A DNA stretch of 63,212 bases, counting the filler, from Kipferlia bialata (Eukaryota), in assembly GCA_003568945.1 (NCBI GenBank). It is 6 parts of 6 records of this genome, joined end to end, with 100 filler letters (N's around TTAATTAATTAA, not from the genome) between each part and the next. Parts side by side here need not be neighbours in the genome. Positions count along the whole stretch, not along the records: positions 13,053 to 25,985 come from BDIP01001009.1; 5 more parts are not named here. One strand, written 5' to 3'. The notes beneath the pieces are model-generated. The model did no database searches and was not told the origin of the DNA. It saw nothing but the letters and a program-made list of their open reading frames with translations. Numbering within the stretch: the stretch's first letter is position 1; the number at the start of each line of letters is the position of its first letter. The position numbers were made by a program, and so were the translations under genes. Positions 13,053 through 54,563 of the stretch are shown one piece after another.

Positions 13053-13141
13053 GTAGCTAGTGCCTCCTGTCCCCCCCTTCCCCCCCCCCCCCCCTTCAAA
13101 GTCACACCCTTATGCATCTCTCTTTCATGTCTAATACACAG

Positions 13142-14014
13142 GCACCAACTTTGGTATCTGGGTCGACCTGGCCACAAGGGCAGTCACGTTCCAGAGGTAT
13201 GGGTACATAAAGTGTATATACTCTCTCTCTCTCTCGCTCTCTTCCACTCTCCACATATACATATACTCCCTCACTCTAGAACACTTGTGCTCACCCTTTC
13301 TCCACCTCTCTCCCTCTTTCTCTATGTATATCTGACTCTCAGGCGCACTGGTGCCCTTGGCCCCCAGGAGGCATTCTACTCATACAAGAAGGTACGGGCT
13401 CTCTCTCTATATATATCTATATATCTATATATAGAGTATAAATTCATGCATTCTTTCCCCCAGATGATCCGCTCCCTGACTGGCATTGCCCACCTCTCTC
13501 TCTCCCTCTCTCTCTCCCTATGTATATTTATATCTTATATCCAGATGATCCCCTCTCTGACTGGCATTGCCCAGACCATGGTGACTGTGATGGAGGAGAC
13601 AGGCACTCTGGCAGGTACTAAAACTATTAAAACAGTATATACTGTATACACAAACATATATTGACTTACCATTAGGCATCCTTGACCCCAACCAGGGCCA
13701 GGAGGGTCTCTCTCTCTCTCTCTCCCTCCCCCCCTCTCTCTCTCTATGTATATATATATACTATAAGTGAGAATGTATATATAGGCTATTGTGCTTACAC
13801 TAGGCATTCTGGATGCTAACCAGGGTCTTGACGGTGCCTCTGTCCTCATATTCGGGGAGTTCTACGGAGGTAGATACAGAGACCAGACTGCTGGCATGAT
13901 CATGGTGCAGGTGAGCGTCTCTATATATCACTATCTCTATATCGGATAATCATTAGCTCTTCTCCCCACGTATATATCTCATAGAATGTGTTACTATCTT
14001 TTCTCTCTCAACAT

Positions 14015-14058
<44 letters not shown>

Positions 14059-17000
14059 CCTCTCACCTCCCAGCCCCAGATCCACTACAGCCCCACCTGC
14101 CACTTCTTCCCATTCGACATTGCAGTCTGCCCAGAGGTGCTATTCTAATGAGATATGGTACTAGTATATACATTTATGTATTGCTACAGTATCACATGCA
14201 TATATATATATCCACCTGCCGTTTCTTCCCATGCGACATTGCAGTCTGCCCAGAGGTATGCATATTCCGAGACGCATCCATACAAGTGCAGATGTAATTG
14301 TATATACTTTGTATTTTCGTGTATATGTGTGGAACCTTCTTCCCATTTGACATCGCAGTCTGCCCAGAGGTACTAACCTAATGAGATGTACATACTATAC
14401 CTGTGTGGCTAGATTCGCACTCTCATTCTACATCTTACCCCCAGGGCGATGCCTCTGTCGAGAGAGAGAACCAGCGTGAGCTGGCCGAGGACGAGGTGTG
14501 TGTCTCTCTCTCTCTCTACCCCCTTCTCTCCTCCTCTTCTACTAAGAAGGTACTCTCTCCCCCGTCTCTCCTCTCCCTTCACATATAGTAATATACATAT
14601 ACACTAATACCCAGGGTGATCCCCTCCCCCCCCACCCCTCCGACATGGTGTACCTGTCTGCACATGAGGTGGACTCCATCTGCGAGAAGGCAGCAGGGTA
14701 CGTGTGTATATAAGGATGTATATTTATATATAAATGTATCGTATCGTATATACATATATATAGTATATACATATATTTCTTCTAACCTGTAGTGTATATG
14801 TATATCTATATTGATGCACCATCTCACCCCCCAGCCGCTGTGACCTCCTGACCTGGGCCACACCTGTGATGGTCGGTACACTCGAGGTATATATCTCAGT
14901 ACATATGTCAATACATATTGGTACTTAGTATATGCTCAAATTATAGTTCACCCTGCTCACCCCCAGGACTATATGTATATATATGTGTGTGTGTATGTAT
15001 ACCCCATCCTCACCCCCAGGAGTGCAAGGCCATACCAGTCGAGGGAGTGGCCACCACCATCCCAGGTACTTAAGTTCATCTCTCTCTCTCTCCCTCTTTC
15101 AAATTGTCAGGTACTTGTGTTCATTTCTCTATCTCTCTCTCTCTACATTGAGCCATGTCCCCACAAGTTCTCTTCACATATATCTCTGTATACTCCTAGA
15201 CCATTGACCCTAGGCCGCCTTGGCCTTGAGCCCATCCCCGACAACTTCTCTCTCTCTCTCTCTATACACTATTGTATATCCATATGGTTTCTCCCTAACT
15301 TCAGGCCGCCTTGGCCTTGAGCCCATCCCTGACAACTTCTCTCTCTCTCTCTCTACACCACTATATATCCATATAGTATTTGTATCTCTATCTCACACCA
15401 GGCCGCCTTGGCCTTGAGCCCATCCCTGACAACTTCTGGGAGGGGGTCGTCATCAGGTATGTCTCTCCTCTTGCCATATATACGTTATGGCCATTGTATT
15501 TCGTGACGGCTTCACTATTTGAGTATATACACTTATACATGAACATCGATATGAATCTCCATACTCTTTAACCCCAGGCCACTCCACCAGCGTGGCAGAC
15601 ACACACTTATATTCACAAGCATAAGTGTATTCACACATTAGTATACATATGTCTCTCTCTATATATGTATGTGTGTACTAACCCCAGGCCCCTCCACCAG
15701 CGTGGCAGGCACACCATCATGAAGCGCAAGGTCAACGTCATGGGGTCTGCAGGAATAGCAGCAGCTGAGAGGGCAGCCAAGGTATATAGTGCAATCAGTA
15801 ATATATGTATATATTAATATCTCTGTATATGAGTATGTATTTGTGTATATATACATTTGTTAGTGTGATACTATTTATGATCAGCGAAGAGGGCAGCTAT
15901 GGTGGGAAGAGCGTCGTATGTAAGCCCGTGGATCTACCAATGGCCCATTCTCTCCCTCTCTCATATCATGTACTCATAGGTGTTTCTTTTCTCACCCCAG
16001 TCCAAGATCCGTGGCTCTGCCAATGCCAATGACACAACAGATGTGCTGGCACCTTACAGGGCAGGTTGGCATATTAATAGTGCATGATATATACTCTACC
16101 CTAGTATCTGGTCATTCCTCCACCTATTTGTATCTATGATTGTGTATACCTCTCATTCTTAGCCATCGACGCTGTCCTGACTGTGGACAGGGCCACTGAC
16201 ATACACACACCTCTACCACTATGGATGTACTATATTGACTACTATATATATATATATATATATATTCTTCTCACCCCCAGCCATCGACGCTGTCATGACT
16301 GTGGACAGGGCCACTGACATATATCTCCCTAATACTATACATATATACTCAATATATACTCTGTATATACTCTGTATATATATATATTCTTCTCACTCAT
16401 AGCCATTGACACCATCATGACTGTGGACAGGGCCACTGAGATCATCTCCCACCACGGGGTGGCCATGAAGGTATGAGATGGGTATACATATAGTTACTAT
16501 ATGATATAGTATATATGGATATTTCTTACCCCTTTGTGTCATTCGACATCTCGCACCATGGGGTGGCCATGAAGGTATGCATATATATATATATATACAA
16601 TATAAATTATTGATGTACCATATATGTATGATATACCATAGTGTACATATGCATCAGTACATTGATGTATACATATACATATCATCTCCCATCACGGGGT
16701 GGCCATGAAGGTACGAGAAGGGTATACATAATATACAAATTTAGTATATATGGATGCCACTTACCCAATTGGGTCAAAGGCGATGTCATCAAGCAGTTCT
16801 TAACTATTTCCCCCTAGATATGCACACTATACATACACAGTAGCGTGTCACTGTAACCTAACCCTCCAGGTCATTGGCCGTGTCATCAAGGAGTTCTCCG
16901 ATGAGGTGATGGGACTGGTCATGGAGGGCATGGACGAGGCATTCTTCAGGTATTATATATATATATACTGCATATGTATATATATGTATATACACTATTA

Positions 17001-17735
17001 CCTCCACTATATATACCCTTGGATTATCCGATGAGGTGATGGCCCTTGTCATGGAGGGCATGGACGAGGAGTTCTTCAGGTACTTATGTATATAATATAC
17101 ATGTATATATATGTATTAGTATATATATAATGTGCAATATACTACATATACTACATTGTAGCTGACTAGTCATGGAGGGCATGGACGAGGCATTCTTCAG
17201 GTACTGATGTATGTATATGGATCGGAATTTTCTCTGTATACTGTATAATTCTTCTATAGTCTGATAAGATCGACGTAAGGATGGAGGGCATGGACGAGGA
17301 GTTCTTCAGGTACAGAGTCTGTCACAGACATTCTTATGGATATTTGTATAATATGAACATGAAGGAACCTTCATGTTTGTACTGTGTACTAGTGTACATG
17401 ATATACTTTAGTCCACTCACCCCAGGCTGACTGACAAGACCCAGGCCAAGCTGAAGAAGGTCATCCGCAAGGTATGGGAACATCATTGTTATAATAGATA
17501 CATATAGTATGCTCTTTCACGATATGGTACACTACAATCATATATACAGTTAGTGGTACTTTACTTGTAATGATTACTGGTGCATTTGCTGAAGAAGCTC
17601 ATCTGCAAGACATATGCTGGTCTCTCTCTCTCTATTCATATATACATCTCTATGTGTACATGTCACACCCTCCTAACCCTTCAGGAGGCGGGTGTCTTCG
17701 TTAGGCAGGTCTTCCTGCAGCAGGCCCAGGGTTAG
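13142..17735 (+). CDS. Rnl2-family (T4 RNA ligase 2 / kinetoplastid REL-like) ATP-dependent RNA ligase, 5' partial, multi-exon
   Basis: Exons give GTNFGI (motif I tail; the catalytic Lys exon is missing), FQRRTGALGPQEAFYSY (Ia), IFGEFYGG (III), HYSPTCHFFPFDI (IIIa), WEGVVIRP (IV) and TIMKRK (V). C-terminal TVDRATEIISHHG...IGRVI resembles the Rnl2 C-domain. Stop TAG at 17733-17735. Confidence 0.85.
15202..15440 (+). repeat. Acceptor plus exon-start echo cluster (2 intronic copies) in the RNA ligase gene
   Basis: ag|gccgccttggccttgagcccatccc(c/t)gacaacttct occurs three times. Confidence 0.9.
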
Positions 17736-18163
17736 CACCGACCGGCTGGCAATCATAGACCCCACATCCGTATTCTACGCGATATTAATATTGCTTTACG
17801 CGATTGTGGTAACACTGAGGGGCACATGGCTGAAACCTCCAATATATGTAATAGATTCGCTCAGTGAAGCATTTGTAAGTTGCACTGGCAAGTGAGGATA
17901 CTCTCATATACTATTGTCAATTTTTAGCTAATGATATTAGTGATGGTACCTTATCATACTCAAATACATGCCTATACAGTACAACCCAAGAAGAGGACGA
18001 ACAAATATATTGGCACGAGGTTCCAAACACCTCACTAATGAATGAACAATGGACACAAAACGATAATCTCTCCACGACTAACACTCCCACTGACACTTAG
18101 TGCTAAGCGCATATGACTCTAACCGACAGTTTGTCTCTCCAGTGGAGACTCCTAGTTACTGCC

Positions 18164-21063
18164 TTAGTGCTTTCTCCTCTTGCCGCTCTTGACATTGGAG
18201 GAACCAGAGTGCTTGCCTAGGGGTCAATGACACACATTCGAATTTGAATACGAAGTACATATACAGAGAGACAGAGAATAGTTATATACAGTGTATTCAG
18301 TGCTTGTCTCTGTCACCTCATCCTTCCTGTCACCGGCCGTATGTATACACACGTATATGTACATATACTATTTCTAAAACATAGTATATACACATATATA
18401 CACATCAACACACCTAGCAGCTCGTCCTCGTCCTTCTTGTCCTCGGCAGCCTCAACCACAAGGTGACGGCCTAGGAGTGAGAGAGAAGTATATACATAGA
18501 TAGAGAGAGAGAGAGACAGAAAGACCACAAGTTGATGGCCTAGGAGTAAGAGAGAGAGGGATGGTGAGAAGGAAGACGACGCATACTTAGCTACATATGT
18601 AGATCTGCAATGGTTATATACATACCATAGAAGTGGGTTCCGTTCAGCATCTTGGCGGCCTCGGCGGCATCCTCAACACTAGAGGTTAGACATAGGTATA
18701 TGTATATAAATATACTGATACATAGATAAAGAGAGAGAGAGAGAAAGCATCTTGGCAGCCTCGGCAGCATCCTCAACACTGGGGGTGATGTCCACATAGT
18801 GATATACATACACATACATATAGGCATATACCGATGTGCACTGACCTAGTGTACTCTGCGAATCCGAATCCCCTCAGCTCTCCGTTCTGCCTCTTTGGGG
18901 CACGCATGGTCTTCAACTCGCCAAAGGAAGAGAGTAACTGACGCAGTTCCTATTGTTAGAGTATATTGATAGAGAGAGAGAGAGAGAGAGACACGCATGG
19001 TCTTCAACTCGCCAAAGGAGGACAGGAGCTGACGCAGTTCCTATCGTTAGAGTATATTGATAGAGAGAGAGAGAGAGAGACATGCATGGTCTTCAACTCG
19101 CCAAAGGAAGAGAGGAGCTGACGCAGTTCCTAATGGTAAGTATTATAGTATTTACGTATATATATGGGAGCGAAAGAGAGAGAGAGAGAGAGAGTATGGT
19201 CTTCAACTCGCCAAAGGAGGACAGGAGCTGACGCAGTTCCTATTGATTAGGTATATAGATATAGATAGGGAGAGAGAGGGAGAGAGAGAGAGAGAGACAT
19301 GCGTGGTCTTCAACTCGCCAAAGGAGGACAGGAGCTGGCGGAGCTCCTATTGATTAGGTTTTCATATATAAATATGTGTGTGTGTGGGACAGAGAGAGGG
19401 AGAGAGATATTGTGCCAAAGGAGGACAGGAGCTGACGCATTTGCCTAACGGATACATATATTCCATTAGATATATATCACTCTGTACCTAAGCATTGGCC
19501 TGGAATGCAATGTTCCTGATAACCAGCTACATACATATTCAGATGTATATATAATAATATATACATATATGTATAATTGATATATACAATAGAAGTATGT
19601 CACTCAATACCTTAGCATTGGCCTGGAATGCAATGTTTCTGATGACTAGCTTGAGGGCACCCTTGGCCTTGGCCGGGGTGGAGGCATCTCTATACATGAG
19701 TATGTATTGTATAGTATCTATCTATCTATACACTCTAGATATGTCAGCAGCAAACAGACAAGTACTTAGTACCTGTTAGTCAGCCTCATCTCCAGGGGGT
19801 TGTCCTTGGGGGCACGCTCCAGCCTCTTGGCGGCACGGGCCTGGGGTGAGGGTATGGACGTATATGCATGATTGTTTGGATATATGCACAACAACAGAGA
19901 GATTCACACAAATGATTACTTTTGATTATGAATATTATACCTTGGCCCTGGCCTCGTCTGTGATGGCAGCCCACTCCAGATACAGGGGGACCTGGGGTAA
20001 GAGGTATATGTATATGGATACAAGGCAATACATGTACACAAATACATATAACGTGAATCGAGTGGGAGAGAGAAGCGCCACAAAGTCGTCCCCAGACAAA
20101 AGTGCGTAAATATAGGTAATACACCCCATATACCTTGCTCTTTCCGAGGGGTGTGAATGCCAGTCTCCTGAAGGCAACCTGGGGGTCAGACGAGTTGTAA
20201 GGGTATGAAAGTAAGAACATGACCCATGAATATGTGTATTAGCGTCTTTCTATGGCTATTGAAGGCAACTATGCAATGTATATGGACACCACTTAGTATA
20301 TGGATATGACATATTGTATATGATAGCAGTACCTTAGCGGACTGAGCATCTGCCATCTCGACAATGACTGTATACTATATCTACATATATACACATACAT
20401 TATCTATATACGTATACAAATAACTATGCACACACATCTATACCTTAGCGGACTGAGCATCTGCCATCTCGACAATGGTCAGAAGGGCACCTGGGGGTAG
20501 ACATATAGAATATAATACATATAGAGATAGAGGTAGAGAGAGGGAGGGAGAGGGAGAGATAGGTTAGAAGGGCACCGGGGGAGGGGGGGGGGGGGGGAGA
20601 GATAAACCTATACAATGGATATAATGCAATATGTATCTCTATACCCACCTGGGCTTGGGTACACTGCACTGACTGCGGCGATTACATATATATTAATACA
20701 TAGTATACATGTAGTGTATATATAGTATATATATAAATAGCAGTATGTACCTGGGCTTGGGTACACTGCACTGACTGCTGCATGCTTGGAGAACATGGCC
20801 TCTGGGGGGTGAGAGATAGATAGAGATAGAGAGATAGAGAGAGTTACACGGAGAGAGAGATGCTTTGGAGGACAAGGCCTCTGGAGGGTGAGAGATAGTT
20901 ATAGGCATATGTATATATATATATATATATATATACAGCGTATGTACCTATGTCGTCTGGTGACACATCCTCTGGGATGTTCTTGCACAGCACAGTGGTC
21001 TTGGACCTATGGTTAACATACACATGTATATATAGAGAGGGAGTATATATACTGAGAATATAT

Positions 21064-21097
<34 letters not shown>

Positions 21098-21711
21098 TCT
21101 ACCTGACACTCTCTGCGTCCGGATCAGGCTCGATACCCCTGCTCTCGAGGAAGATGCCTGGGGGTTAGTGTATGTGTATCATACATATATGCGATATATA
21201 TATATACAAATAGTATACATTTATAGTGTTTATGTGTTTATAGTATATATATATAGTGTGAGAAATTGTATCTCTACTCCATGCTATCACAAATAAATAC
21301 ACAATGTACCTAGCTCCCTTGTGAGTATTGCCTCTCCCGCTTCCATTCTGACAGCTGCATACAAAATGAATAGTATATAGTATATACATAGCATATAGTA
21401 TAGATAATTAATAGTATAATACCTAACTCTCTGGCTAGCCTGGCCTCTCCCGTTGCCATCCTGACAGCTGCATTCTCTGAGAGAAGGTCCTCCTTGGACA
21501 CACCCAGTCTGGAGGCAAGTGTAGAGGTCATAGCGCCCTAGGATTAAGGGTGTAGAGAGAGAGAGAGAGAGAGAGAGACCCAGCCTGGAGGCAAGGGTGG
21601 AGGTCATGGCACCCTGATATTAAGGGTGTAGAGAGAGAGAGAGAGAGAGATACCCAGCCCAGAGGCAAGGGTAGAGGCCATGGCACCCTATAGTGAGTAT
21701 ATATAAATATG

Positions 21712-21753
<42 letters not shown>

Positions 21754-23730
21754 ATGTGTGTGTGTGTGTGTGTCCTCACCTTGTTAGTGTGGAGTGTGTT
21801 CCATGTGGACTGGTCGGCAGAGCTGTTGAGTCTGGGGTCAGGGATATCTAGTAGTATAAATATACATATATAGATGACACACATATATACAAGTCAGTAC
21901 ATATATATACCAGCTATGGACTGGTCTGCAGAGCTGTTCAGTCTGGACATGAAACGCAATATTACACATATATACATACAAGCACAGTTTCTGTTATGTA
22001 TGTGATCTCTCTCTCTCTATATATATGTACCTGTCTATCCACATACACATACCTCTGCTTCTTCTGCCTCTGCTTGTATGTCAGCTTAGAGTCATCACTC
22101 TCCCTGGGGGCAAGGGCAGCTGTGAGCCTAGCGTTAGATATTTACATGAGCAAATATATATACATACAAATAAATATATAGAACGAGCGAGAGAGAGGGG
22201 GGGGAGAGGGAGAGAACACCCTCCCTGGGGGCCATGGCGGCTGTGAGCCTAAGGTGAGATATATACATACAGGTAGAGACAAAGAGAAAAAGAAGAGAAT
22301 GTCAATCAAGTACAGTAGTACCTGATGATCTTTCCTCCGATGATGTGGCTCTCTGAGAGTGCCTTGACAGCATGCTCAGGCAGCATGAACTGCACAAAGG
22401 CAGAGCCTGGCATTAAGGGTGCAGAGGGAGAGAGAGAGAGAGAGAAAGTATGCTCAGGCAGCATGAACTGCACAAAGGCAGAGCCTGACAATAAGGGTGC
22501 AGAGGGGGGGAGAGAGAGAGAGAGAGAGAGAGAGAGCCTTGACAGCATGAACTGCACAAAGGCAGAGCCTGACAATAAGGGTGTAGAGAGGGAGAGACAG
22601 AGAGAGAGAGTAAACAGTACCTGTGCTGAACTCTGACACTGGGTCGATGATGATGTGGGTACATCACACACATATACACATACACATACACCTCTACATA
22701 GTATGTGTATCTATCTATATAACTATCCATATATATATATCTATCTATATACACACAGTACCTGTGCTGAACTCTGACACTGGGTCTATGATGTGGGCCT
22801 ATTTATAATACATGAATGTATATATGTACAAACTAAATTAACACATTTATCATATATATATATATATATAGGTGTATTACCTGTGCTGAACTCTGACACT
22901 GGGTCTATGATGATGTGGGTGTCACTCACAGGACCATACTTCTCAAAGTGCCTGGGTGTTACATGTGTGTTCAGACACATACTATTACATACACACTGTA
23001 TATACATATATGTGGGTATATACCTCCTCAACACCCCACTGTCTGTGCTCACTGGCAAATGGTACAGCTTCACATTCCTCTATACTATATAATATATACA
23101 CTATACATATGTATATATATACCTCCTCAACACCCCACTGTCTGTGCTGACTGGCAGGTGGTACAGCTTCACATTCCTCTATACTATATTATATATACAC
23201 TATACATATGTATATGTATACCTTCTTAGCACCCCACTGTCTGTGCTGACTGGCAGGTGGTACAGCTTCACATACCTCTATACTATATAATAAATACACT
23301 ATACATATGTACATGTATACCTCCTCAGTACCCCACTGTCTGTGCTGACTGGCAGGTGGTACAGCTTCAGTCTGCCTGTCTCTCCGGCATCGGCAAAGCC
23401 CTCGCCTACATGTAAGGAACATATTTATTACTATAAATATATACATGAATATACTACAATATATACTCAGTCTGCCAGTCTCTCCGGCAAAGCCCTCTCC
23501 TAGGGTAAGAGAGAGTAATATAGAGATATATGCTCCCCGGCATCGGCAACGCCCTCGCATGATTACCAGACAACTACATAGTCACTACACTGTATCACCC
23601 ACAATATTTACACCACTATACTACTATGAACATAGCTGTACCTGACACTGTCACTCCATTGCTCTCCCCCTCCTGGGGTGCCTGTCTGACAGGGGCAGTG
23701 GCTACTTGGACCTAGGGGTAAGTGTATATG

Positions 23731-23798
<68 letters not shown>

Positions 23799-24917
23799 AT
23801 ATGTCTGTCTCACAGGGGCAGTGGCCATCTGGACCTAGGGGTAAGTATCACTTAGACCAAGAATGAGGGATTGGAGATACGACTCCTCATAGAACAAACA
23901 GATCTACATCCACATAATCAAATACATGTGCAATGTATACATAAATACAAATGTATATACATGTACCTCAATCTTCTGGCTCCTCATGTATGTGCTGTTC
24001 AACTCCTTGACAGACCTAGGGGTAAGGAAGAGACAATACGAATGAAGACACGTGGGACTGATAGAGAGAGAGAGAGAGATAGGAATAGATAGGTGCCATT
24101 CAACTCCTTCACGGACCTAGGGGTGAGACGCTAAGTGTATATAATATATATACAAGTTGTATACACTAAGTATTAGTCATTGCATGGTACTCTTCCTTAG
24201 ACTTGGGATATAGATATGAGAGGAGTGGCAAAAGTATATGCACAGTGAGGCAGAGAGAGACAGAGAGATGAATATATGGAGCTCAATTCTTGCCTTGCTG
24301 CTGTCCCTCATTGAACATCATGTATATGGTATATATTGAATATATAGAATGTATGATTAGTATATACATATACAATATAGGTCAATACAGTTATATACCC
24401 TATACTTTCACTATACCTTGCTGCTGCCTCCTCGTCGTTGAATCCAAAGAGACAGACACAAAGTATACATATTCATTATGTATATGTATATATGTCAATA
24501 TAGTCCATCTATATCTATGCCATACCTTGCTGCTGCCTCCTCGTCATTGAATCCAATGAATGCATAACGACGGGACTTTCCATCACTACAGAGTGAGTGA
24601 GAGAGAGGGAGAGACATTAATCAAGAGAGATACAGATCAGAATAGAGAGATCTCAGAGAAAGTACACAGAGCGGTGGTGGTGGGGGGGGGGGGGGGGTAC
24701 TAATACTGGGTCGTCTTCTAGGAATATGCGGCAACACAGGACGTAGGTAAGCGATGGTACAGTGAGATACTCAGAGTGTGAGAGAGTAGAGAGCAATAGA
24801 TACGTACGGTCTACGCTTCACGTAACAGTCTGTGATGGATCCATATGGCGAGAACAGGGCCTTGAGCGCCTTCTCGTCTGCCTGCACGGGCAGATTCTTG
24901 ACAATGACACGGGACAT
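18164..24917 (-). CDS. MRD1: Multiple-RRM ribosome biogenesis protein MRD1/RBM19, multi-exon
   Basis: N-terminal MSRVIVKNLP...DGKSRRYAFIGF, further RRMs (GSAFVQFMLPEHA; AFRRLAF...PLYLEWA; KLVIRNIAFQA...ELRQLLSSFGELKTMR...LRGFGFAEY...THFYGRHLVVE), ending in basic GKRRKH*. Confidence 0.9.
18893..19440 (-). repeat. Acceptor plus exon-start echo cluster (4-5 intronic copies) in MRD1
   Basis: The tag|ELRQLLSSFGELKT block repeats about every 90-110 nt, separated by (GA)n/(TA)n tracts. Confidence 0.9.
23021..23370 (-). repeat. Exon-end plus donor echo cluster (3 intronic copies) in MRD1
   Basis: The KLYHLPVSTDSGVLR|gt block occurs four times at about 100-nt period. Confidence 0.9.
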
Positions 24918-25060
24918 AGCCCCAGTACGCGCAGAGAGAGAGTAGCTACTGAAGATGTGGTACTGTCTTCTCAACTACACCCTTAAGACGTTTTTGCCAA
25001 TCTTGTATCTGCCTTCAATCATGCCTCCGTGACCTATTTTCGGGATTATAGACAGTAGAA
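24918..25060. promoter_or_regulatory. Putative bidirectional promoter between MRD1 and MAK16
   Basis: 143 bp separate the two divergent ATGs. Confidence 0.6.
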
Positions 25061-26085: not shown

Positions 26086-26330
26086 CCAGAAGCCGAGATA
26101 TATATGGTGAAGTGGTGACCTATTCTGCGGCACATGAGTGACGTCAGGGCATGTTGCATCTCTGCACAAATAGAGGTGAAAGAGATACAATGAATATGAA
26201 TCTCTAAGTACTTTACAATATATGAAGCCACAAACTTTTTATCTGGTACATCTATTATATATCAAAGGTATATGTCACAGGACCTTCAACTGCCTCAGCA
26301 AACTCTATACAGGTGCCGGGTGTCCATTAT

Positions 26331-29300
26331 CTACGCAGGAAGCAGGAGACTCACAAGCCGCACAATATCAACAGTGCCATCACCATGTGTGGGGAGGGCC
26401 AGTGCCTCAAGTTGGGAACTGGGAAGAACGGCTCCGAAACACTGTGGAATCAGAGCTCGGTCCATTCCCGAAGATGCACCGGAATCGCTAACCATCCGTC
26501 TGAAGAATGCGAGATACTGATCACGGCCGGCAACGGGAGGAACTATCCTCCTCATAAGGGTGAGAACCTCATCCCCAGAGATGGTCCGTGACTCTGACGT
26601 GCATGCTGCATCAAATGCCGCTCTGATTCTGGGCATAGCGTCCTTCTCAGACCCGGCCTCACCGAGAGCAGCCACAATGCGAGTGAACATGTCAACATCA
26701 ACACGGTCAGACGAGTCAGAGTCACACGAGGCAATGTAGGCCATGACAGACTTGATCGTGTTGTACTCGGCCAGGGTGAAGTTGAAACGTGTGTGCACGT
26801 CCTGTGCGCGGGTCAGGGCGTCAGTGAGAGTCTCAGACTCAGCAGTAAGATGCTCCTGCAGGGACATCAGAGTGGACTGCAGGTGCTGAAGCCCAAGGTG
26901 AGACGGAATAGCCATCTCCTCTCTAGCAGAGCTAGGCAGAAGAGACCTGAGCTTGCTGATCCCTTCGGACCTGGGAATCAGTCTCTCATAATCAATTATA
27001 ATTAGATACTATGGGCTCTTAGCAGCAGTCATAATCTAGAAAACTCCTTAACCGGCTCTCGAAACATCAGAACCCACCTTATCATGTTGTTGACTGTGTC
27101 GGCCGCCCTACATTCCTGACGTCAGAACAAATAATAACAATATATCAGGGTCATACCCACACATACTCACCGAGAGGTCATTATTGGTCATGACACACAG
27201 GTATGCCGCATACTTCACCAGGGTCAATCTCTCCCGCTCAGCCGTTGTCACCGCCCCATGTCTCTCTGATGACAGACTGGACAGGGCAGATATGGTGGCG
27301 CTGTACCCGGTGGACAGGGCAAGACACTCTGCCCTACGTGCCTGTCAGTCAGGTACTAACACGTAACCAGAACGAGAGAGGAACTATAAATACATGTGTA
27401 TCTCGACCCCCACCTGCCACTTGTCCCTGAAGGCACGCATGTCCACGGCAGGGACTAGCTCGATGAACTCTCCTGATGATGAGAGAAATCAAGGCTGGTC
27501 AGAGGTGTCTGGGGACAAACCATACGTACCTAGACTCGGTGGAGCTTCCTCACCATCCATCTCTGGCTCAAACAGAAGGAATCCACCTGGGGTTATAGAA
27601 GCTGGGATACCACAAACACCTATGCCATCACACAGTGTATATCAGAGCCAAGGGAGGAAGGACCATGGACCCTTCTGCCGCAGTATCAGTATCAGTACCT
27701 GTGATGAGGTCTGCCACCCTGTCGAGCCACTGGTCCTGGTCGGAGGGGGACCGGGGGGCGGGGGGGCGGGACTTGGGGACACTGGGTCCTGCGGCAGACG
27801 ACGCACCCTCACTACTGGAAAACACATCGGCAATGGTGGCATGAAGGGGCGACGTGTATCCTGACACCCCAAGAGGCAGCCTGGGGTTAATTGACGGATA
27901 ATGTTGAGTGAAGCGTTGCTTGAACACAGAACATACACAAATGGGGATAATACGCACTCAAACTCATGTAGACTATTGTAACAATACATGTTTGGTCCCA
28001 TGTTGTCGGGCATACCTGACCATAGCGTCTTCCATGGTATTCATGGCCTCTGACATTGGAACAGCGGAACCAGCAGCCTACAGTGAACGAAATATCGATG
28101 TATGTTGAAATTCAGGGCTGTTCAGAGAACTACCGTCCCAGTTTTCTACACTGCAGCAACTGCTTACCTGAATTTCCGGCATGAACTCCTTTTCCAGCCT
28201 GAGGTAAGATATTGTCATGGAAACACTTGAGTCTGATATATAGCTGCCAAACATAGTAACCACTAATATCACACCAACTACGCGAAATAGGTCGAATGCA
28301 ATGCCACAGCGTATATCACAGATTCAATACATTGACTGTACCTGGAGGCAATATCAACAGTGTGGTCACTGAGGTTCTGCTTGATGATTGCTGAGGTGAG
28401 TTGTCATTTCTTCCCTGAGAGGCTACCGTTCACAGTGAAATTATGTTGACTAGTACATACCTGAGAGAAGTCTGACACGAAGGGGATCGAAGAGGAACTC
28501 CAGTGCCCTTTCATTCTTTGCCACAACCACAGCCCCGCCCTGACCGGCCTCGGCGTCATCGCCAAGAGGCGAGACAGCTCCCACAATGGAGGGTGGGGAG
28601 GAGGAGACACCACCAGCCGACAGACCGACCTCTCTTTCAAAGTCGGAGTCAAGGCGAAGGTAGGATGGAACATCAACGCCAGCGTCAGTAGAGAAGGAGA
28701 CACGTGTAGTCCCGTCATCCATGGTCGTCTCATGCATCAGAAGTATCCCACCGATGGACTGCTCCCCAGTGGAGCTTCTAGCCCCACTGTCAGTGTCTGC
28801 CGAGTCCTGCTGACTGGCACCTGAGCCTGGTCGGGACAGGGACGGCGGCGCTGCACCCTTGGGCGCCTGCCTCAGCAGAGAGCGGATGCCCCGCCCCATG
28901 TCGGTCTCCATGTCCACCTCTGCGTCTGAGACGAGTCCCTGCAGCAGAGACATCACTGACTGGATGGCACCAGAGCTGGCAACACAGGCCTGCTGCTGTC
29001 GCCTGCATAAGTAAGAATCATAAGAACTCTATCAGTATCTCAGTATCATGAATACCGTACCGTGTTGTAGTTCTCAGGCCAAGTGCCCTGAACAGCATGT
29101 CACATGTGGGCATGACGGCTCTGATGTTCTCGGTGAGGTCATTGAAACTAGCAACCATGTCAAGAATCTGGGTGAGAACTCACAAACATAAAGGAAATAT
29201 ACAAGTAGCGCTGAATGCCCACCTCTCCCTTCAGTGACACATACTGCATGGGGTGCAGATACTGGGACATGCAGAGACTGCTGTGGGGGGAGACACTCTC

Positions 29301-38937: not shown

Positions 38938-39015
38938 CTGGAATAAACATCGGGGGAATGAATGAATGGTGGGGGGGGGGGGGGGGGGGATACAACTAAT
39001 GACAATACCTCTGTC

Positions 39016-41795: not shown

Positions 41796-43464
41796 CTATT
41801 CCCTCGATAGCTGGATGAGCCTCAGCACCTTGTCATCGCCGACACTGTCTGCGATATCCGCCGGTGTTCTACCCTCTGAATCGGCTGCACAAGGGTCAGC
41901 ACCTGAGTGTCAGTATCATACTATACATACAATATACAAACAAATACTGATACTGTTGCATTGGGGTAAATATTCGTAAATATATGTAGCACCTGCCAAT
42001 AGGAGGAGTCTCACTATCACGTCGTTGTTGCGGCTCACCGCGAAGTGAAGTGCAGTTCTTCCCTGGGTAAGGATGGTTTGTGAACTATACATCCTGAGCG
42101 TATACTACTGATATATATATGAGTATGTACTTCTATATATATGAGATCTCAGCTGTATCAATGACCCTGACCTTGTGTGTCCTCCCATCAGGCTTGGCAC
42201 CAGCCAGCAGCAGGGACCGAACCCGCTCTTCCGCCCCATCTGCCACCGCTCTGTGGAGAGGGGTCCACTGCTTGGCACCCTCATGTCTGTCTAGATTGGC
42301 TGTATCTATGCCACTCTGCTGCATGTGGCTAGGGGACGAGAGGCCTCTCTCAACAGCCTCTGCGGCAGTCCCTACGTACACCGGGCCTGGATCATTCAGC
42401 CTGAATATGCCCTCGTACCTGCCACTCCTAGACACTGTCAGGGGCCCTATCACACCGCCTCCAGCAACATACACACCCCACCGCAAGAGCTCCTCACCCC
42501 TGAGGCCATGTGGCAGTGGCAGCCCCCTCTTAGCCTCAATCTCTGGGATGGAGAGCCACTCTGCCCCCTCAGACTCCCTGTCTGGCTTGCTCTTAGGTGC
42601 CTGGTGGATGTCGGTGGGTTCCGCGTAGAATATGACCCTCATCCTGGCTGTCTCGGGGGATGTCAGGGAGTGCTCCACGGCCAGTACACCCTTGAGTGTC
42701 ACATCAACACCTGCCATCAGTATGAGTAGTGTGTATATTTATATAGAGAGAGAACGTATATATATATATATATATATATATATGCATGACACTGATTCCT
42801 CTCTCCTCCCGTATCTCTCTTAGGGCTGTATCAGTGTCGGAAGTTACTGGATACACATATACTTTGTATATATGCATATGCCACTCATACCTGTTTCCTC
42901 CTGTCTCTCTCAGGACAGTACCAGAATCAGTATTACATATACTGATACAACTGATTCAGTAGTATATATGTATGTATATGATACCTCCCTCCTCCTGTGT
43001 CTCCCTGAGTGCAATACCAGTATCAGTATAACTTATACTTACACTACTGATTCAGTCTTATGCATATATATAGTATATATATGTATGTATATGGTATTGA
43101 TACCTGCCTCCTCCTGTGTCTCTCTCAGTGCAGCCTCCACAAAGGTCTGGCCGTAGTCGACATGGCCGGCAGGCAGCCACCAGCCGCGGCCTCTGGACTC
43201 AGACACAGCGAGGAACTTGCCTATGGGATTAGGACCATTCCTTCTTTCGTATATACATTCTTTGTGTATGATGAGGAATGGAGTTGTGTGGATCCTAAGT
43301 ATAGCTTCAAAAGATGTATTGTATATATTAGTATACTAGTAATTCTATATATATACTAGTAATTCTCAGACTGGGTCACTTTTAATGAGCATACCTGACA
43401 CAGGATGGCGGCACACCACAACGGCAAAGCCATGCGTCTGGAATGCAATCCTCTTGTCGCCCAT
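41796..43464 (-). CDS. Nudix hydrolase fused to C-terminal ankyrin repeats (5 exons)
   Basis: WWLPAGHVDYGQTFVEAALRETQEEAGV (Nudix box), then WTPLHRAV, GRTALHFAV, GADP and GRTPADIA ankyrin motifs. Runs from ATG 43464 to TAG 41796. Confidence 0.88.
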
Positions 43465-43872: not shown

Positions 43873-46523
43873 TCAAGCGAAGTCAAAGTAGGCAGAGTCT
43901 GTGTGTGTCTGGGATGGGGGCCAGAAAGACATGGAGAGGGACCCCTCGTCAGACTCAGTCTCTGACAGGCCTCCCTCCCTGTCTCTGTCTCTGTCTCTGT
44001 CTCTCTCCCTCTCCCTGTGGCCAGACTTCTCTCTCTCCAGTAGTTCTGGCAGAGGGACTAGCTCTGTCAATGGCTGCTTGTGGTCCGAGGCACTGAGGGA
44101 GAGGTGGGAGAGGGAGAGGGCGAGGGAGGCATCGGCATCCGACACACTCTTGGCGGCCTTGCCCCTGCGTCTCTTCTCTCTCTCTCTCTCTCTCTCCCTC
44201 TCTGCCACCTCCTGCAGCAATGGTGCCAGGTACTGGTGGTACCTGCATAACCTGGAGGTCTCCTGGTGTGAGGATGTGTGGTGAACAGGGTAGATATATA
44301 TATATATATAGAGTACACCCCCTACCTTTGGGGATATGTCTGCCAGCAGGGCATGCAAGGGGGGTAGCATGGGGAGAAGGGGGTCGGTGGGGGAGGGGGA
44401 CTGAGGGGCCAGGATGGACTCGACCTGGGGGTGAGTACAGAGAGAAGTAATAACAACGTAAATACTAACAGAGGCAACACCACCGTATATGCCTCCCTGT
44501 TTATCACACCTTTGTGAGCGGGGTGTCTATGGCCAGAGATGCCAGGGACACTCCGATGGAGAGGGAGGGCGAGGGGTCAGAGTCAGTCAGGCGGGACTTA
44601 CCCTGGGGTAAGAGGGGTGGAGACAGAGTAGTAGAGCATAGGGCATTTTAGTATGAGAGAGAGCCTCACCTTGCTCCCCCCCACCGGTGTGAGTGTGAGT
44701 GTGGTGTGGGTGAGTGCGCCTCCCTTCATCAGAGAGGACAGGTCTATGTTGCACGTCAGCACCTCAGCCTTCTTGCAGCCCTGACAGTCAGAGAGGGATA
44801 GAGACGGAGAAGGAAAGACTGGTACGGACACAACCCACCTTAATGTCCACAGCCCCTGTCTCTCTCTCCCCTACATGGTCTGGGGCATCATCTGCCGTCT
44901 CTCTCTCCCTTCCCCTCTCCTTCTCTCTCTCCTTCTCTCTCTCCCTCTCCTCTCTGTTTGATGCCGCTGCCACCTTCGTCTTCTTCACAGTGCAGATGGA
45001 GATCCTGGGGTCAGAGGTATAGTATATACTAATACGTATATATATACAGAGAGAGAGAGAATGTGTCTTCACAGTGCAGATGGAGATCCTGGGGTCAGAG
45101 GTATAGTGTATATACTAATGCGTGTATAAATACAGAGAGAGAGAGAGAGAGAGAGATAATGCGTCTCCACAGTGCAGATGGAGATCCTGGGGTCAGAGGT
45201 ATAGTGTATATACACACACACACACAGAGAGAGAGAAACAATAAGAGAGAGAGAGAGTATGTGTATTCACTGTGGTACCTGAGCGTGGGTGTGGCTGTCT
45301 CCCTCAGTGAGTGCTTGTATGTCAAGGCAAACAGAAGGGACACAGGGGCCTGAGGGGTGAGGGGGGGGGGGTACCACTATCTTCTAAAACGCAGAAATAG
45401 AGGATGTAACTACATGCAACATATACATGGAACTGTACCTGCACTGGGAGCAGTGGCAGGACCGATGCCTGGGAGTGGCTGAGGGAGTATGCTGGGACGT
45501 CAGTCAAAGTACAGCAACAGACACTGCCACAATCACCATATTTACCATATATAGCTAAATAGAGTGAGAGACTGGCGAGACTGACTGTACGGGATATATA
45601 TACAGCACGGTATCACATACTCATCCAGGTCATACCTGATGGGAATGGCCCCTGGGAGAGAGGAGGGGGAGAGGCAGGGAGGGAAGAACCCACACAAAAG
45701 GGAGAGGAGAGCACAGTGCGTGACCTGAGTATAAGAGAGGAGCAGGGTGACATTGCTGCATAAATCCAGTGAAGTATACCTAAACTGAGGTCCAGAAAGA
45801 GAGAGAGAGTATACCTGTCTACAATCTTGGCCCCCACTGAGAGCCCCTTGCCAAATAGAGACGCGCCACTCTGGAAGCACAGGGAGTGCACATGTACATA
45901 GGCCACTCTGGGCACACCTAGGGGGTCAGGGTACTACAGTAACACAAAACAGGTCACATATATAGTGAGTAACTGTATTCACACAATACACTCAATATAT
46001 ATTTGCTACCAACCTGTCTTCCAGTTCTGAACCTTCTCTTCGCCCAGTGGAAGGACGTAGCTACCCTGGTATAAGAGAAGGGGGTAAGAGTGATCCCAAT
46101 TATGTCATCCATTTATGCGAATGAGATCGTTATGGGCAAATAACACAGTAAATATGTGGGATTGGAGTATAAGTGTGCAATTACAAGGGCTTCAGCGATA
46201 TGTAGGGACAATTGGCAGCAGACTACAAATAGGATATGTTGGTACCGGTACCAAATTAGATCATTGATACATACCAACGCCCAGAGGAAGTATCTAGAGA
46301 TGTAGACAACTATACAGCTAAGTATCACACAATAGGGTCATATGGGCGTGCCGCAACGAATACCATGGAGGAGAGAGATGATATATATATATATATACCC
46401 AATATGCAGTAGAGATAGAGTCGGACTGTCCCGATTACCTGCAGCAGAGGGTTGAGCCTCTCGAACGAGCAGAGAGGCTCCATCCGGAATGGGAACACAG
46501 AGACCTGTTGGGGGCTGTCTCAA
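43873..46523 (-). CDS. Hypothetical multi-exon protein with RE/RD low-complexity tracts (start uncertain)
   Basis: GT-AG-bounded exons can be joined into an open frame ending ...DSAYFDFA* at 43873. No recognised domain. Confidence 0.55.
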
Positions 46524-46695: not shown

Positions 46696-49210
46696 ATGTC
46701 CTCGTACTCTCCGCTGAGCCTCTCTGGCCCCTACACCCAGGCGGACAGGGAGCGTGACCGGGAGCGTGATGTCATGCGTGACATTGAGAATGGGGTGGTG
46801 CCAAACAGGGTGGGGGAGAGGGACTTCCGCAGCACTGCTCCTCTCTCTGCGTCCCACTCGCTCTCCCTGGCCAAGCCTATCGGTAGTCTCTCTGGTAGCT
46901 TTGGCGCACCCAAGCAGCAGCCTCTGTATGACATGGAGGAGGAGGCGCTGAGGGCCCAGATAGCAGTGCTCACAGGTATAGGGAGGTTTCTATATACAGG
47001 GCCACGAGCTCTCTAGCTGCATTGGAAGTATAACAATCAGTGTGTGTACCCCCCCCCCCCCCCCCCCCCCCCCCCTCCCCCCCCCTCCCTCTAGTCTTTN
47101 NNNNNNNNNNNNNNNNNNNNNNNNNNNNNNNNNNNNNNNNNNNNNNNNNNNNNNNNNNNNNNNNNNNNNNNNNNNNNNNNNNNNNNNNNNNNNNNNNNNN
47201 NNNNNNNNNNNTTTTGTGGGGGGGCTCCCCCCCCCCCCCCCCCCCCCCCCCCCCCTTCCCCCCCACTGGATGGATACCCTTCATGTTTTCCCCTCTCACC
47301 CCTAGGTGCCTTCCTCTGCCCCACCCTCAGTGCCCTCAAGTCCCACAGCCCAGTGGTACGCATAGTGTATTATACATGCTGTTATTTGTGTTGTCCCCTT
47401 CGTTGACTGAATGTGGTTGATACCACATCTCCACTCTTTACCTCTCCCTCTCTCCCTCCCTTACCCCTCCAGACTGGTGCCAGGTGTGTCATAATATGAT
47501 ATACAAGAGTACTAATATCTATTGTTCCATTAGCTGAGTCATATCATTTAGTAGTTTCCCCTCTCCCCCTCCCTTACCCTTCCAGACTGGTGCCCGGTGT
47601 GTCATCCTGGCACCCACCAGAGAGCTGGCAGTCCAGATCGGCATTGTGGCCAGAAAGATGGTCAAGTGAGTACATTACCACTATTCTCTAGTTTGATCCA
47701 TTAGTGATATCCCATACTCTGTACTGACCCGCTAGGTACACTGACCTCCGTGTGTGTCTGCTGGTGGGAGGTGACTCTCTCTCCAACCAGTTCAGTGCAC
47801 TGTCCGGCAACCCAGGTGCATATGGAGTATTGTGTTGTATAGTGTATTGTGACCCCCTCCCACACCACTCTCTCTCTCTCACCTCCAGACATCATCGTTG
47901 CCACCCCTGGTCGTCTCACCCACATCATGGACGAGACCCCAACCTCTCTGTCCCAGGTACATAACCATGAACTAATGCTGTATGGTCATACTGAGTGCAG
48001 TACTTGATCATACAAATACATTGGTTATACTGATACTTCGTCACACTGGTGTAACTGTCACTGATCCCAGGTCCAGTACATGATCATGGATGAGGCAGAC
48101 AGGATGTTCGAGCTTGGTGAGTGGTATATGGTATAGGATACCATAGTATATGTATATATACCTGACCCCAGCCCTGCGTGACCAGGTCATCATTGTGTAT
48201 TATGTCTCTCTATTTATGTATATACCTATGCACCCCCATACCCCCACCTCATCCCCAGCCCTGCGTGACCAGGTCAGCACCATCCGTGATGCCATGGGTA
48301 CCAACGTGCAGACCCTGCTCTTCTCTGCATCCATGCCCAGCACCCTGGCAGACTTTGTCAGGGCAAAGCTCAGAGAGCCAGCCGTCATCAGGCTAGATGC
48401 AGGTGTCAATTATATATACTATACTATATACATATATACATGATATTATACATATGTCAGGGCAAAGCTCAGAGAGCCAGCCGTCATCAGACTGGACGCA
48501 GGTACATTACACTACCCTTTATACCCTATATATATACGCTCATCAGACTGGACGCCGGTGGGGAGAGGCTGTTACTCTAGTTGGTATTATATATATACTA
48601 TGTGTGTATTGAGGCTCACCCCAGACACCAAGATCCCAGAGACCCTCTCCCTCCAGTACATGACAATCAGTGCTGGTGAGAACAAGGTATGCACGCATAT
48701 ATTTGGATGATCATATTTATACCTGTGTACCTCTACCCGCCAGAGTACTGCCACTGTCCTATATATACCTACCTGTATACCTCACCCCCAGGTAGCTGCC
48801 CTGCTCCTCCTGCTCCAGTCCCCCTCCCAGGCCATGCCCGTCACACCCATACCCGCAGACAGCAGGGTCATCATATTCACAGCAACCAGGTATCATGGTG
48901 TCATATTCACACCCATAATGTATCGGTATGGTGCCTCTCTGTTCCAATATGGATCTTCGGGAAGTCTGCTTTTGTACTGTCCCTCCCTCACCCCCAGATA
49001 CCACGTTGACTATCTGACCGCTGTTCTGAGGAGAGAGGGCATCTCCGCGGTCCCCATCTATGGATCACTCGACCAGCAGGTTAGACACACATTTATATGC
49101 ATGCTACAATATGTTGTCATCTACACTGTCTCACCCCAGGCCCGTTCTGCTGCTGTGAATGGGTTCAAGACCAACCAGTACAGGTGCCTGGTCACAACAG
49201 GTAAGCATGG

Positions 49211-49263
<53 letters not shown>

Positions 49264-51923
49264 GTATCTCCCTCACCCCCCAGATGTCGCTGCCCGTGGT
49301 GTGGATATCCCAGATGTGGAGTATGTCATCTGTTACGACATGCCTGCCAGTCCCAAGGTATAGATAGTGAATATATATACACACCAAACTGTTCTGAGCC
49401 ATTTCTCTCTCCCCCCCCCCCCCAACCCTAGGTGTTTGTCCACCGTGCCGGTCGTGTAGCCAGGCAGAACAAGAGCGGTCTGTGTCTGTCCATCGTGACC
49501 CCCGAGGACCTGCCCTACCTCTGTGACACCACGCTGTTCCTGGCCAGGCCCCTGCAGCCATGCACTGAGGCTCAGGTGGGATATATCTATACATATATAT
49601 ATATGTATGTATATACACCTCATACCCTAGATACTATTCCCTACCTCTCTCACCATTAGAATGGATGCAAGGACCTGTCCTTCTGGCTGACCAAGGCGGG
49701 TAGGAAGGGGGTGTCTGAGGGTGCCATTGGGGCAGTGCCCCAGTGCTTCCTCGACATCATACAGGTACATCCTAACTTGCGTGCTCTGTGGGGTTTATCC
49801 CCCGATACTCTATCATCTCTCTCTGGTGTATACTCTACCCCCCAGCCCACCATCGACCGTGCCATGTATTCTTTCTCTATATATATATTCCAATCTCTTC
49901 CTGATCTATACTGTAAACCCTGTGCACCTACCCCAGCCCACCATCGACCGTGCCCTGGATGACCCCGAGGTGGCCAAGATGCGTAAGAGCGTCAACAACT
50001 CCATGATCAGGTATACACACCCACTCAGAGTACTCCCTATGTATACGTGTGCATGTATCTGACCCCCAGGTACCGCAAGACCCGCCCCACCGCCTCCAAG
50101 CCTGCCCTGACCAAGAGCCACTCCATCATGGACGGCGGCATCCCCATGCACCCCCTGTTCCTCAGCTACGAGAGCATCACAGGGCCATCCATCGCTAGCC
50201 TCAGGTGCATACATCTACATATACATGAACTCTCATATATGTATATATATATGATATATGTACCCTCTTCCTCACCCCCAGGAGTGTGCGTCCCACCCAG
50301 TCCATCCTAGAGGTGGGCAGCAGCACCACAGGGCAGGGCGAGATGTCAAAGCTCATCATGCAGACAAGGTATGATAAATAGATTGACCAGGGATTGTGTA
50401 TATATAACATGTATATGCATATAGGTGTGTGTATGTCAAAGCTTTTCATGCAGACAAGGTATTGTATACATTGGTATTTACATGTTGTATTTGCTATACT
50501 TGATATCATACTGGCACCCGATGTAGATGTTAGAATTCCTGCTGACCCCAGGCGTATGGAGATGGACAAGCGCAATGAGCGTCTGACTGGTTTGAGGGAG
50601 CAGGCATCCAAGGTATATATGCATTCATACATACATATATATGTATGGTACTGACCCCCAGGTTATGGCACAGAAGAGGAGCATTGAGTCCCTCCAGGCC
50701 TCCCTGGGAATAGGGAGTGGCAAGTACCAGGGGTCAGGCTTCATCAGTGACAGACCAGAGGACAAGCAGAAGGTACCAGTATATATATATGTATATATGT
50801 ATATTTATATATATAAGAATATATTAATATTATATTTATATATACTAGTATAGACCCTGACCCCCCAGGAGATTGACGAGGCCGGGTATGCCCTGGACAA
50901 CGGGTCCAAGCAGAGCAGACAGGACTCCCTGACCTCTGCCATCATGGACCTGCTGCCAGAGGACCACGAGACACTGACCGGGAATTTGAAGAAGGTATGT
51001 ATATGTGGTATATACATATATATATACTATACTATACTATACTAGGTAGAGTATATAGTATATATGTCTACGAGACACTCACAGGGAACCTCAAGAAGGT
51101 AGGGTATATACAGTGTGTATATACATATATAGACTGGGAACCTCAAGAAGGCATGGAAGGGGTACAGAGATTGTATATACATACATATATGTTTAACCCC
51201 CAGGGCCTTGTGACGAAGTGGGACGCCAAGTCCAAGCAGTATGTCAAGTTCGACAGTGCCCAGCGGACAGCCGAGAAGGCAGCCAAGAAGAAGCAGGCGC
51301 CACTCCTCACGCAGACAGACTCAGGTACGTATATAGAGTATATTGTATATACCTCTATGTCAGTATATGTATATATATATACACACACATTCATAAGGCC
51401 CCACTCCTCACACAGACAGACTCGGGTATGTATATATAGTATATTATATATATATAAATATATATATATATAATATACCTCTATGTCTGTATATGTGTAT
51501 ATATACACACATTCATAAGGCCACACTCCTCACACAGACAGACTCAGGAATATATATATATATATTTATATGTATTAATAGTGTATCAATATACTTAACC
51601 CCAGGTGGCTGGGCCGTGACCAGGGCCAGGGTCAAGGGCAACCTGTACGACCAGTGGAAGAAGAGGACAAACAGGGAGATCCAGCGGACAGGGGTCAGTG
51701 AGGAGCCTGACACCGGCCTCACCGCCCAGGAGCACAAGCTGCAGGGTCTGGGAAGGCATGCAAAGAGGAGGTTCCACATTGAGGTGGGTGAAGACAGCTG
51801 TCTATACTCTCTATCTCTCTTACTGTGTATCATTATGTCTCACTCTCTAGGAGCAGAAGCACGGCAGGCAGGCTAAGGGCCCCCTCAACAGTGGCACAGC
51901 CACAAAGACTAAGGCTGATACAG
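46696..51923 (+). CDS. DBP10: DEAD-box RNA helicase DBP10/DDX54 (interrupted by gap 47100-47211; 3' partial)
   Basis: APTRELA, GGDSLSNQFSAL, ATPGR, DEADRMFE, LLFSAS, IFTATRYHVDY, YGSLDQQAR, TDVAARGVDIP, FVHRAGRVAR, plus DBP10 C-terminal WDAKSKQYV and LYDQWKK. Confidence 0.9.
47100..47211. other. Scaffold gap flanked by C homopolymers
   Basis: N run between C tracts. The helicase Q-motif and motif I exons are missing, so the true gap is probably larger. Confidence 0.9.

Positions 51924-54520: not shown

Positions 54521-54563
<43 letters not shown>

Follow-up and report, generated by a model that had tools for sequence, protein, structure and literature searches.

Intronic head-to-tail copies of exon ends in Kipferlia bialata appear to carry a signature of coding selection

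Minisatellites that span an exon–intron boundary have been described for five human genes, namely F7 intervening sequence 7 (IVS7, 37 bp), CBS IVS13, 6-16, lamin B2 (100 bp) and PDGF (81 bp) (PMC1557585). According to the available part of that report, these are a few homogeneous, donor-side arrays, each confined to a single gene, and the most upstream donor is used. Tandem duplications are also described, in the accessible text of two further papers, as products of failed synthesis-dependent strand annealing (SDSA) plus end joining (PMC8654963, PMC8951532). Here, we analysed repeats of exon ends in a stretch of 63,212 nucleotides (nt) from the Kipferlia bialata assembly GCA_003568945.1, hereafter the window. 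Kipferlia bialata is a free-living fornicate. Each repeat, termed an echo, consists of an exon end plus its splice site and lies within the adjoining intron, donor-side echoes following the exon and acceptor-side echoes preceding it. The portion of the genome paper available to us gives 124,912 introns for Kipferlia, the most intron-rich metamonad sequenced, and an assembly built from short reads (PMC5874029). Artificial contig linkers (N-TTAATTAATTAA-N) stand at 12997, 26030, 39060, 52089 and 57721, and the contigs flanking them are not real neighbours.

A junction-anchored scan on gene models (threshold score ≥10) detected 66 echoes, distributed over 38 of the 143 modelled introns, with about 0 expected by chance; mismatched exon–intron pairs, which served as the null (4,290 per side), reached this score at frequencies of 0.0002 and 0.0000. 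Donor-side echoes were present in 19 introns and acceptor-side echoes in 25, with both sides affected in six. Between one and five copies occur per affected intron end, and seven of the nine well-modelled genes contain echoes. The exon-derived part measures 10-53 nt (median 29.5) and shares 92.6% identity with the exon; approximately four echoes, with just 10-14 nt, may be chance matches. The period ranges from 59 to 152 nt (median 101). Whole-exon matches reach the junction within 2 nt in 38 of 39 cases, and no far exon end was copied into an intron (0 of 100 on each side), so that the copies are always partial and intron-facing. Echoes are confirmed as genuine head-to-tail copies of an exon end plus one splice site. 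The first-pass annotation of this DNA had listed individual echoes, all of which were matched both in a self-BLAST of the window and in the scan, and echoes were detected in each of the kinase, Nudix, hypothetical, DBP10 and phosphorylase genes to which it had extended the pattern.

For these analyses, the exons of eight genes were placed by coordinates and their open translation was checked, while the ninth and last gene has a plausible automatic model from a small gene finder trained on the eight. The main statistics refer to the 143 introns of these nine genes, in this window and in one strain; the proposed alignment of introns to their flanking exons, with copy number and period, was carried out for the window. 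One intron across an N gap was excluded from length statistics. A weak 51-intron gene-finder model at 26086-39015 enters only the zero echo count, a test for an exon-duplication signature (AGGT) and the composition table.

The differences between exons and their echoes are mainly silent. In total, 94 were silent and 54 changed an amino acid (63.5% silent; codon positions 37/17/94; p=4e-7). Under neutrality, a copy dead from birth would show at most 43% silent differences, because a dead echo mutates everywhere while the exon changes only silently, and 27% if all changes arose in the echo. The excess was also found when each difference was counted once (72/114 silent, p=1e-5) and for the nearest echoes alone (56/87, p=5e-5). 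Four-fold sites differed at 20.9% versus 3.6% for zero-fold sites, with an odds ratio of 6.4 within trinucleotide context, on which ground CpG or context mutability was rejected as the source of the third-position bias. AT-ward decay of the echoes was likewise rejected (47 GC-to-AT versus 66 AT-to-GC changes). Differences of inner echoes, at positions where the exon matches an echo lying further out, were silent in 17 of 22 cases, and two-step leucine changes were present (TTA/CTC, TTG/CTC). In forward simulations scored with the same detector, a dead copy mutating at an equal rate gave 39-45% silent differences, none of 200 runs per setting reaching 63.5%; a dead copy fits only if the echo mutates at about one quarter of the exon rate. 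These sequence comparisons suggest that echoes are not simple dead duplicates and that they carry a coding-selection signature, a feature missed by the first-pass annotation.

The intron flanks of the echoes have diverged from the real flanks, identity being 47% on the donor side (unrelated baseline 32%) and 62% on the acceptor side (baseline 44%). The splice dinucleotide is retained in 27/31 donor echoes (GT) and 28/35 acceptor echoes (AG); neutral decay to the same identity would retain approximately 23-30%. Echo donors score 1.23 versus 1.15 for real sites (background -0.36), and echo acceptors 2.25 versus 3.60 (background -5.54). At one locus, a 36-nt exon start recurs almost unchanged at 15214, 15305 and 15402, each time after a different acceptor of the consensus type. 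The silent excess, together with real-like splice scores despite diverged flanks, therefore suggests that the copies diverged while still coding. Decay follows later, in outer copies. The dinucleotide is intact in the nearest copy of 16/16 clusters and in the outermost copy of 11/16, and the ratio of silent to changing differences is 86:39 in echoes with an intact GT or AG compared with 8:15 in those without (p=0.004).

Contigs of two runs from one sample, X1 (DNA) and X2 (presumably RNA; it shows GT..AG joins), were aligned to positions 13100-14715. Since X1 possibly stems from the window's own source sample, its independence concerns the assembly and not the sample. One X1 contig of 324 nt, with a depth of 458 (neighbours 355 and 419), carries the echo at 13460-13492 and exon 13545-13614 at window spacing; it aligns to 13534-13698, and a second part of it matches the start of the exon 41 nt beyond. 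An X2 contig spans seven exons and joins 13391 to 13545, 13614 to 13804 and 14136 to 14445, the first of these joins being read from a table of aligned pieces in a repeat region. In all three echo introns covered, four echoes (one of them sub-threshold) are skipped, and the first donor and the last acceptor are used. The RNA junctions, which the first-pass annotation had proposed as a check, bear out the authentic sites in these three introns. The choice of the last acceptor is not explained by simple 5'-to-3' scanning. A separate 60-nt DNA contig at 14072-14125 differs in one letter, at a depth of 60 versus 300 for the matching contig (one fifth), and is either an error or a minor allele.

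We consider it probable, on balance, that echoes began as working junctions of divergent alleles that were left in the intron by out-of-register recombination. Silent-biased differences above the dead-copy ceiling point to the homologue, not the sister, as template. A break in the exon would be repaired on the divergent homologue, synthesis crossing the exon end and running through most of the intron of that allele; re-annealing would then fail, and end joining would place the new junction next to the exon, turning the old one into an echo. The mirror event would give rise to acceptor-side echoes. Subsequently, unequal exchange between exon and echo could raise or lower the number of units while their breakpoint is inherited, each time importing a functional junction beside the exon. 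In six of 16 clusters, the units have a common breakpoint (equal lengths), and one array shows an alternation of two variants. Only duplications with one splice site and an intron-sized spacer would survive, a step for which the geometry was simulated and selection is assumed. Splicing then relies on the first donor and the last acceptor, as seen in the three introns above, and outer copies decay. In the accessible parts of published work, metamonads are described as lacking non-homologous end joining (NHEJ) and fornicates as lacking Rad51A while possessing two Dmc1 paralogues (PMC8516963), and Dmc1-specific residues as stabilising mismatched heteroduplex (PMC6719624). More tentatively, Kipferlia introns may be an archive of retired alleles, in which exon breaks would be repaired on highly divergent homologues, without NHEJ and with Dmc1, a meiotic recombinase tolerant of mismatches, as the only recombinase, and old working junctions would repeatedly be pushed inside.

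Several observations weigh against an origin from alleles. Simulation of two functional copies, as expected for a pure allele origin, gave 87-89% silent differences, so that later decay is needed to arrive at 63.5%. The silent excess comes mainly from two conserved genes, the gene at 24918-18160 (gene B; 55:18, silent:changing) and DBP10 (14:3); the gene at 13143-17735 (gene A) shows 20:17, the kinase gene 2:7 and the Nudix gene 3:7. Among the DNA contigs at 13100-14715, no other letters or gaps were listed, and hence no second allele. The four-gamete test yielded one incompatible pair, in a decayed cluster, among four testable, and is nearly uninformative. Breakpoints are blurred by divergence, with no dominant end dinucleotide and unreadable microhomology. 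Furthermore, the implied allele divergence is very high (about 20% at four-fold sites), and an assumed constraint on splicing is the sole explanation for the lower bound of the spacers (33 nt, mostly >50).

Ordinary tandem duplications on the same chromosome, generated by slippage or sister-chromatid repair, could also produce such arrays if the copies were dead from birth and refreshed by conversion from the exon and the working junction changed much faster than the copy. In line with this, echo flanks resemble the real flank more than unrelated introns do, on both sides, 8/66 spacers show clear homology to their neighbour (z>3), the echoes of the kinase and Nudix genes appear neutral, and the junction bias is accounted for without any targeting. 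However, the observed proportion of silent differences exceeds the cap set for such copies, and the echo would have to mutate about fourfold more slowly than an exon 100 nt away. The differing, consensus-quality splice flanks and the silent differences of inner echoes are left unexplained. We regard this origin as unlikely.

The first-pass annotation had proposed a duplication process focused on exon–intron junctions. Such a process, whether spliceosome-, R-loop- or RNA-templated, would insert an intron-like stretch and duplicate the exon end. Consistent with this, all but one of 39 copies terminate at the junction; the spacers (33-129 nt, median 73.5) resemble short echo-free introns in length (Kolmogorov–Smirnov p=0.16); 34/66 resemble their neighbour no more than other introns do (z<1); and intron-only repeats occur at chance level (3/44), although diverged intron-only copies would be invisible anyway. 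When random 100-nt duplications were simulated with the exon and intron sizes of the window, 66% spanned a single junction and 26% at least two; 7% fell entirely within an exon and 1% within an intron. No targeting of junctions is required, because this geometry, together with presumed selection against the exon-only and two-junction classes, yields the same bias. Echoes moreover hold exon–intron rather than exon–exon junctions, and the silent bias in the exon part is unexplained by such a process itself. We consider it quite unlikely. Uniform breakpoints fit the spacer lengths only with a floor near 50 nt; the smallest intron has 49 nt. A fixed synthesis length was rejected as well, the range of periods probably being set by exon and intron sizes.

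Use of echoes in minor transcripts, as alternative ends, mini-exons or recursive steps, could maintain coding selection and would fit the coding-type constraint and the intact splice signals. Contigs lose rare forms, so minor use of echoes could escape. Yet the RNA contig skips the echoes in every covered intron, the published gene B protein includes none of its 30 echoes, a second usable site is present in only 3/66, and the intron-retained lengths of echoes show no clear frame bias (27/19/20 modulo 3). This makes such use highly improbable. Most improbable of all is the assembly artefact named in the first-pass annotation as a refutation, divergent haplotypes stacked in tandem: it predicts the same allele-like coding signature, the assembly is from short reads (PMC5874029, available part), and the independent contig bridges one echo locus only and none on the donor side, but that full-depth contig holds echo and exon at window spacing, one junction occurs in six distinct versions, outer copies lack GT or AG or contain a stop, the copies are always partial and intron-facing, and no second haplotype was found among the DNA contigs.

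Intron growth by recurring duplication, as proposed in the first-pass annotation, is supported: each echo adds approximately 94 nt, and echo units make up 6,813 of 22,654 intron bases (30%), the two genes richest in echoes reaching 47% and 56%. Its further suggestion of intron gain or sliding was not borne out. The AGGT signature of exon duplication, in which an intron begins with a repeat of the downstream exon start and ends with a repeat of the upstream exon end, was found in none of 194 introns (the weak 51 included). A usable internal AG|GT occurs in 3/66 echoes versus about five expected, and depletion of such sites was rejected (p=0.24). Internal exons have at least 37 nt, the size of the smallest. 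A check for an introner family, made on short echo-free introns rather than spacers, gave a mean local score of 16.0 between genes and 13.5-19.5 within genes; the shared part of each echo is exon sequence. The accessible text of PMC5874029 and PMC6759080 does not decide whether Kipferlia introns are old or were gained, and echoes do not settle it. At 48172-48189, an acceptor echo ends just past an internal AG|GT and is readable as a 14-nt mini-exon; judged from its sequence, it is a candidate for an intron in the making.

Echo coordinates are given in Table 1. Gene A is presumably RNA-ligase-like, as judged by a motif; two of its exons had no match in Pfam. Gene B, which we take to be RBM19/MRD1-like by name, was modelled with 22 exons (24918-18160, minus strand) and agrees letter for letter with the published 497-aa KIPB_004643. 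An open reading frame at 7956-8978 is 100% identical to Kipferlia bialata KIPB_004641. An exon search for DBP10 gave no match at E≤1e-12. A metagenome scan for relatives returned 11 distant loci (46-75% identical), none of them close, which were left unused. Echo density is uneven. Genes A and B (13143-24918) hold 45 echoes in 36 introns, the phosphorylase gene two in 27 introns, and the last gene none in 23; none was found in the 51 weakly modelled introns at 26086-39015. The latter introns consist of 2.5% microsatellite versus 19-25% in genes A and B, DBP10 and phosphorylase, intron style differing sharply by gene.

Table 1. Echoes and echo-bearing genes of the window ("scan", junction-anchored scan)
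Feature	Position	Strand	Remark
Gene A, 16 exons, 5'-truncated	13143..17735	+	15 echoes in 8/15 introns; exons 13143-14697 match RNA contig X2
Acceptor-side echo of exon 13545-13614	13464..13492	+	RNA skips; same DNA contig as exon
Diverged acceptor-side echo of exon 13804-13910	13676..13698	+	below strict threshold, p=0.05; RNA skips
Two donor-side echoes of exon 14074-14136	14212-14255, 14336-14369	+	RNA uses first donor
Two acceptor-side echoes	15214-15249, 15305-15340	+	scan
Acceptor-side echo	15578..15604	+	scan
Two acceptor-side echoes, IDAV vs exon IDTI	16163..16317	+	scan and translation
Two donor-side echoes	16547-16574, 16681-16710	+	scan
Decayed acceptor-side echo, AG lost	16773-16800	+	scan
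Three donor-side echoes	17027..17309	+	exon and echoes alternate DEAFF / DEEFF / DEAFF / DEEFF
Decayed donor-side echo, GT lost	17588..17609	+	scan
Gene B (KIPB_004643), RRM protein, 497 aa, 22 exons	18160..24918	-	30 echoes in 14/21 introns
Acceptor-side echoes	18524-18539, 18746-18778	-	scan
Five acceptor-side echoes of exon 18949-18846	18992..19443	-	differences nearly all silent; outermost without AG
Donor-side echo, same intron as the 18992..19443 array	19488..19528	-	contains stop codon
Donor-side echoes	20333-20366, 20649-20676	-	zero exon mismatches, intron heads unrelated
Acceptor-side echo	20865-20880	-	scan
Acceptor-side echoes	21578-21613, 21652-21687, 21917-21942, 22217-22248	-	scan
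Echoes of one intron	acceptor-side 22450-22484, 22543-22568; donor-side 22621-22660, 22762-22793	-	scan
Three donor-side echoes, 99-nt period	23024..23270	-	10/10 differences silent
Acceptor-side echoes	23485-23499, 23533-23558, 23805-23834, 24099-24116	-	scan
Donor-side echo	24417-24447	-	scan
Kinase gene echoes	1553-1589, 1635-1671, 3413-3423, 4424-4446, 6163-6190	-	scan
Nudix gene, three donor-side echoes decaying outward	42799..43013	-	scan
Hypothetical gene, two young acceptor-side echoes	45066..45186	-	scan
DEAD-box gene (DBP10-like; name from first-pass annotation), nine echoes in 8/22 introns	47473..51547	+	scan
Phosphorylase gene, two echoes	53807-53831, 56238-56278	+	scan

Further repeats were observed in the window. 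A 13-nt motif (GGGRNTYGWACCC) occurs 12 times, versus 1.6 expected, at 52536-56338 on the sense strand of phosphorylase introns, near the acceptor; the rest of the window has no copy. Three copies weakly match the T-arm region of transfer-messenger RNA (tmRNA) on the opposite strand (E 0.07-0.3). The motif appears to resemble a tRNA T arm or B box in antisense orientation. This points to copying from intron to intron within a gene, or to captured tRNA ends. Separately, Rfam (gathering threshold) and ARAGORN gave no match. In another place, two exon ends belonging to the same gene (40562-40601 and 40975-41014) repeat each other, both apparently coding, with a repeated cysteine motif; this is possibly a whole-exon duplication that was retained. 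Downstream of the phosphorylase gene, a 54-nt tandem repeat is present in two copies (57329-57420).

If echoes derive from alleles, comparing echo and exon would allow both recombination and the diversity of alleles to be read from one genome, and sex in free-living fornicates would become a testable question; C. membranifera was inferred to be haploid and sexual from gene content, according to the available part of PMC8516963. Should the introns indeed be an archive of retired alleles, one genome would preserve tens of thousands of earlier recombination events together with allele sequences, and would be evidence that a free-living relative of Giardia is sexual and hyperdiverse. It would also amount to a natural, genome-wide experiment on a reduced spliceosome that ignores near-perfect decoy sites; the accessible text of PMC6679479 reports 87 of 174 spliceosomal proteins and no small nuclear RNA candidates found. 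Echoes supply many matched decoy donors and acceptors for testing exon definition against scanning. In addition, they reveal a way in which introns grow, to which 30% of the intron DNA of the window is due.

The AGGT model of intron gain, as set out in the available part of PMC3443670, likewise involves a local tandem duplication that creates extra splice sites. However, there the duplicated sequence is exon-only and a new intron results, whereas an echo lies across a junction that already exists and creates no intron. Head-to-tail copying of a stretch synthesised from a template is shared with C. elegans helq-1/brc-1, where failed SDSA is followed by polymerase-theta end joining (PMC8654963), and with aborted SDSA in Drosophila (PMC8951532). 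In the accessible text of these reports, such duplications start from about 100 bp, and the Kipferlia period (59-152 nt, median 101) falls towards the lower limit of the sizes published. The C. elegans events use the sister chromatid as template, give identical copies and occur in a repair mutant, whereas the Kipferlia copies show allele-like differences in an apparently natural genome.

As in the human boundary minisatellites (PMC1557585, available part), an exon end with its splice site is repeated into the intron, the authentic site is used and the copies are silent. The homogeneous, near-identical units of F7 IVS7 were not found in Kipferlia, where 15/66 spacers are homologous to their neighbour at z>2. 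The kinase intron at 3732-4576 (843 nt) comprises about six units of about 75 nt, each with about seven exon bases plus the donor, and this array is the closest match in the window to an F7-type minisatellite. No prior description for Kipferlia, of such a two-sided density or of allele-like copies was found in the literature searched, which included few subscription journals and excluded supplements. Unlike the human arrays, echoes affect 38 of 143 introns, on both sides, in one to five copies with diverged spacers and with differences that point to coding selection. Thus, boundary minisatellites with silent pseudo-donors were already known, while the two-sided density and the allele-like nature of the copies, as deduced from their sequences, appear to be new within the literature searched.

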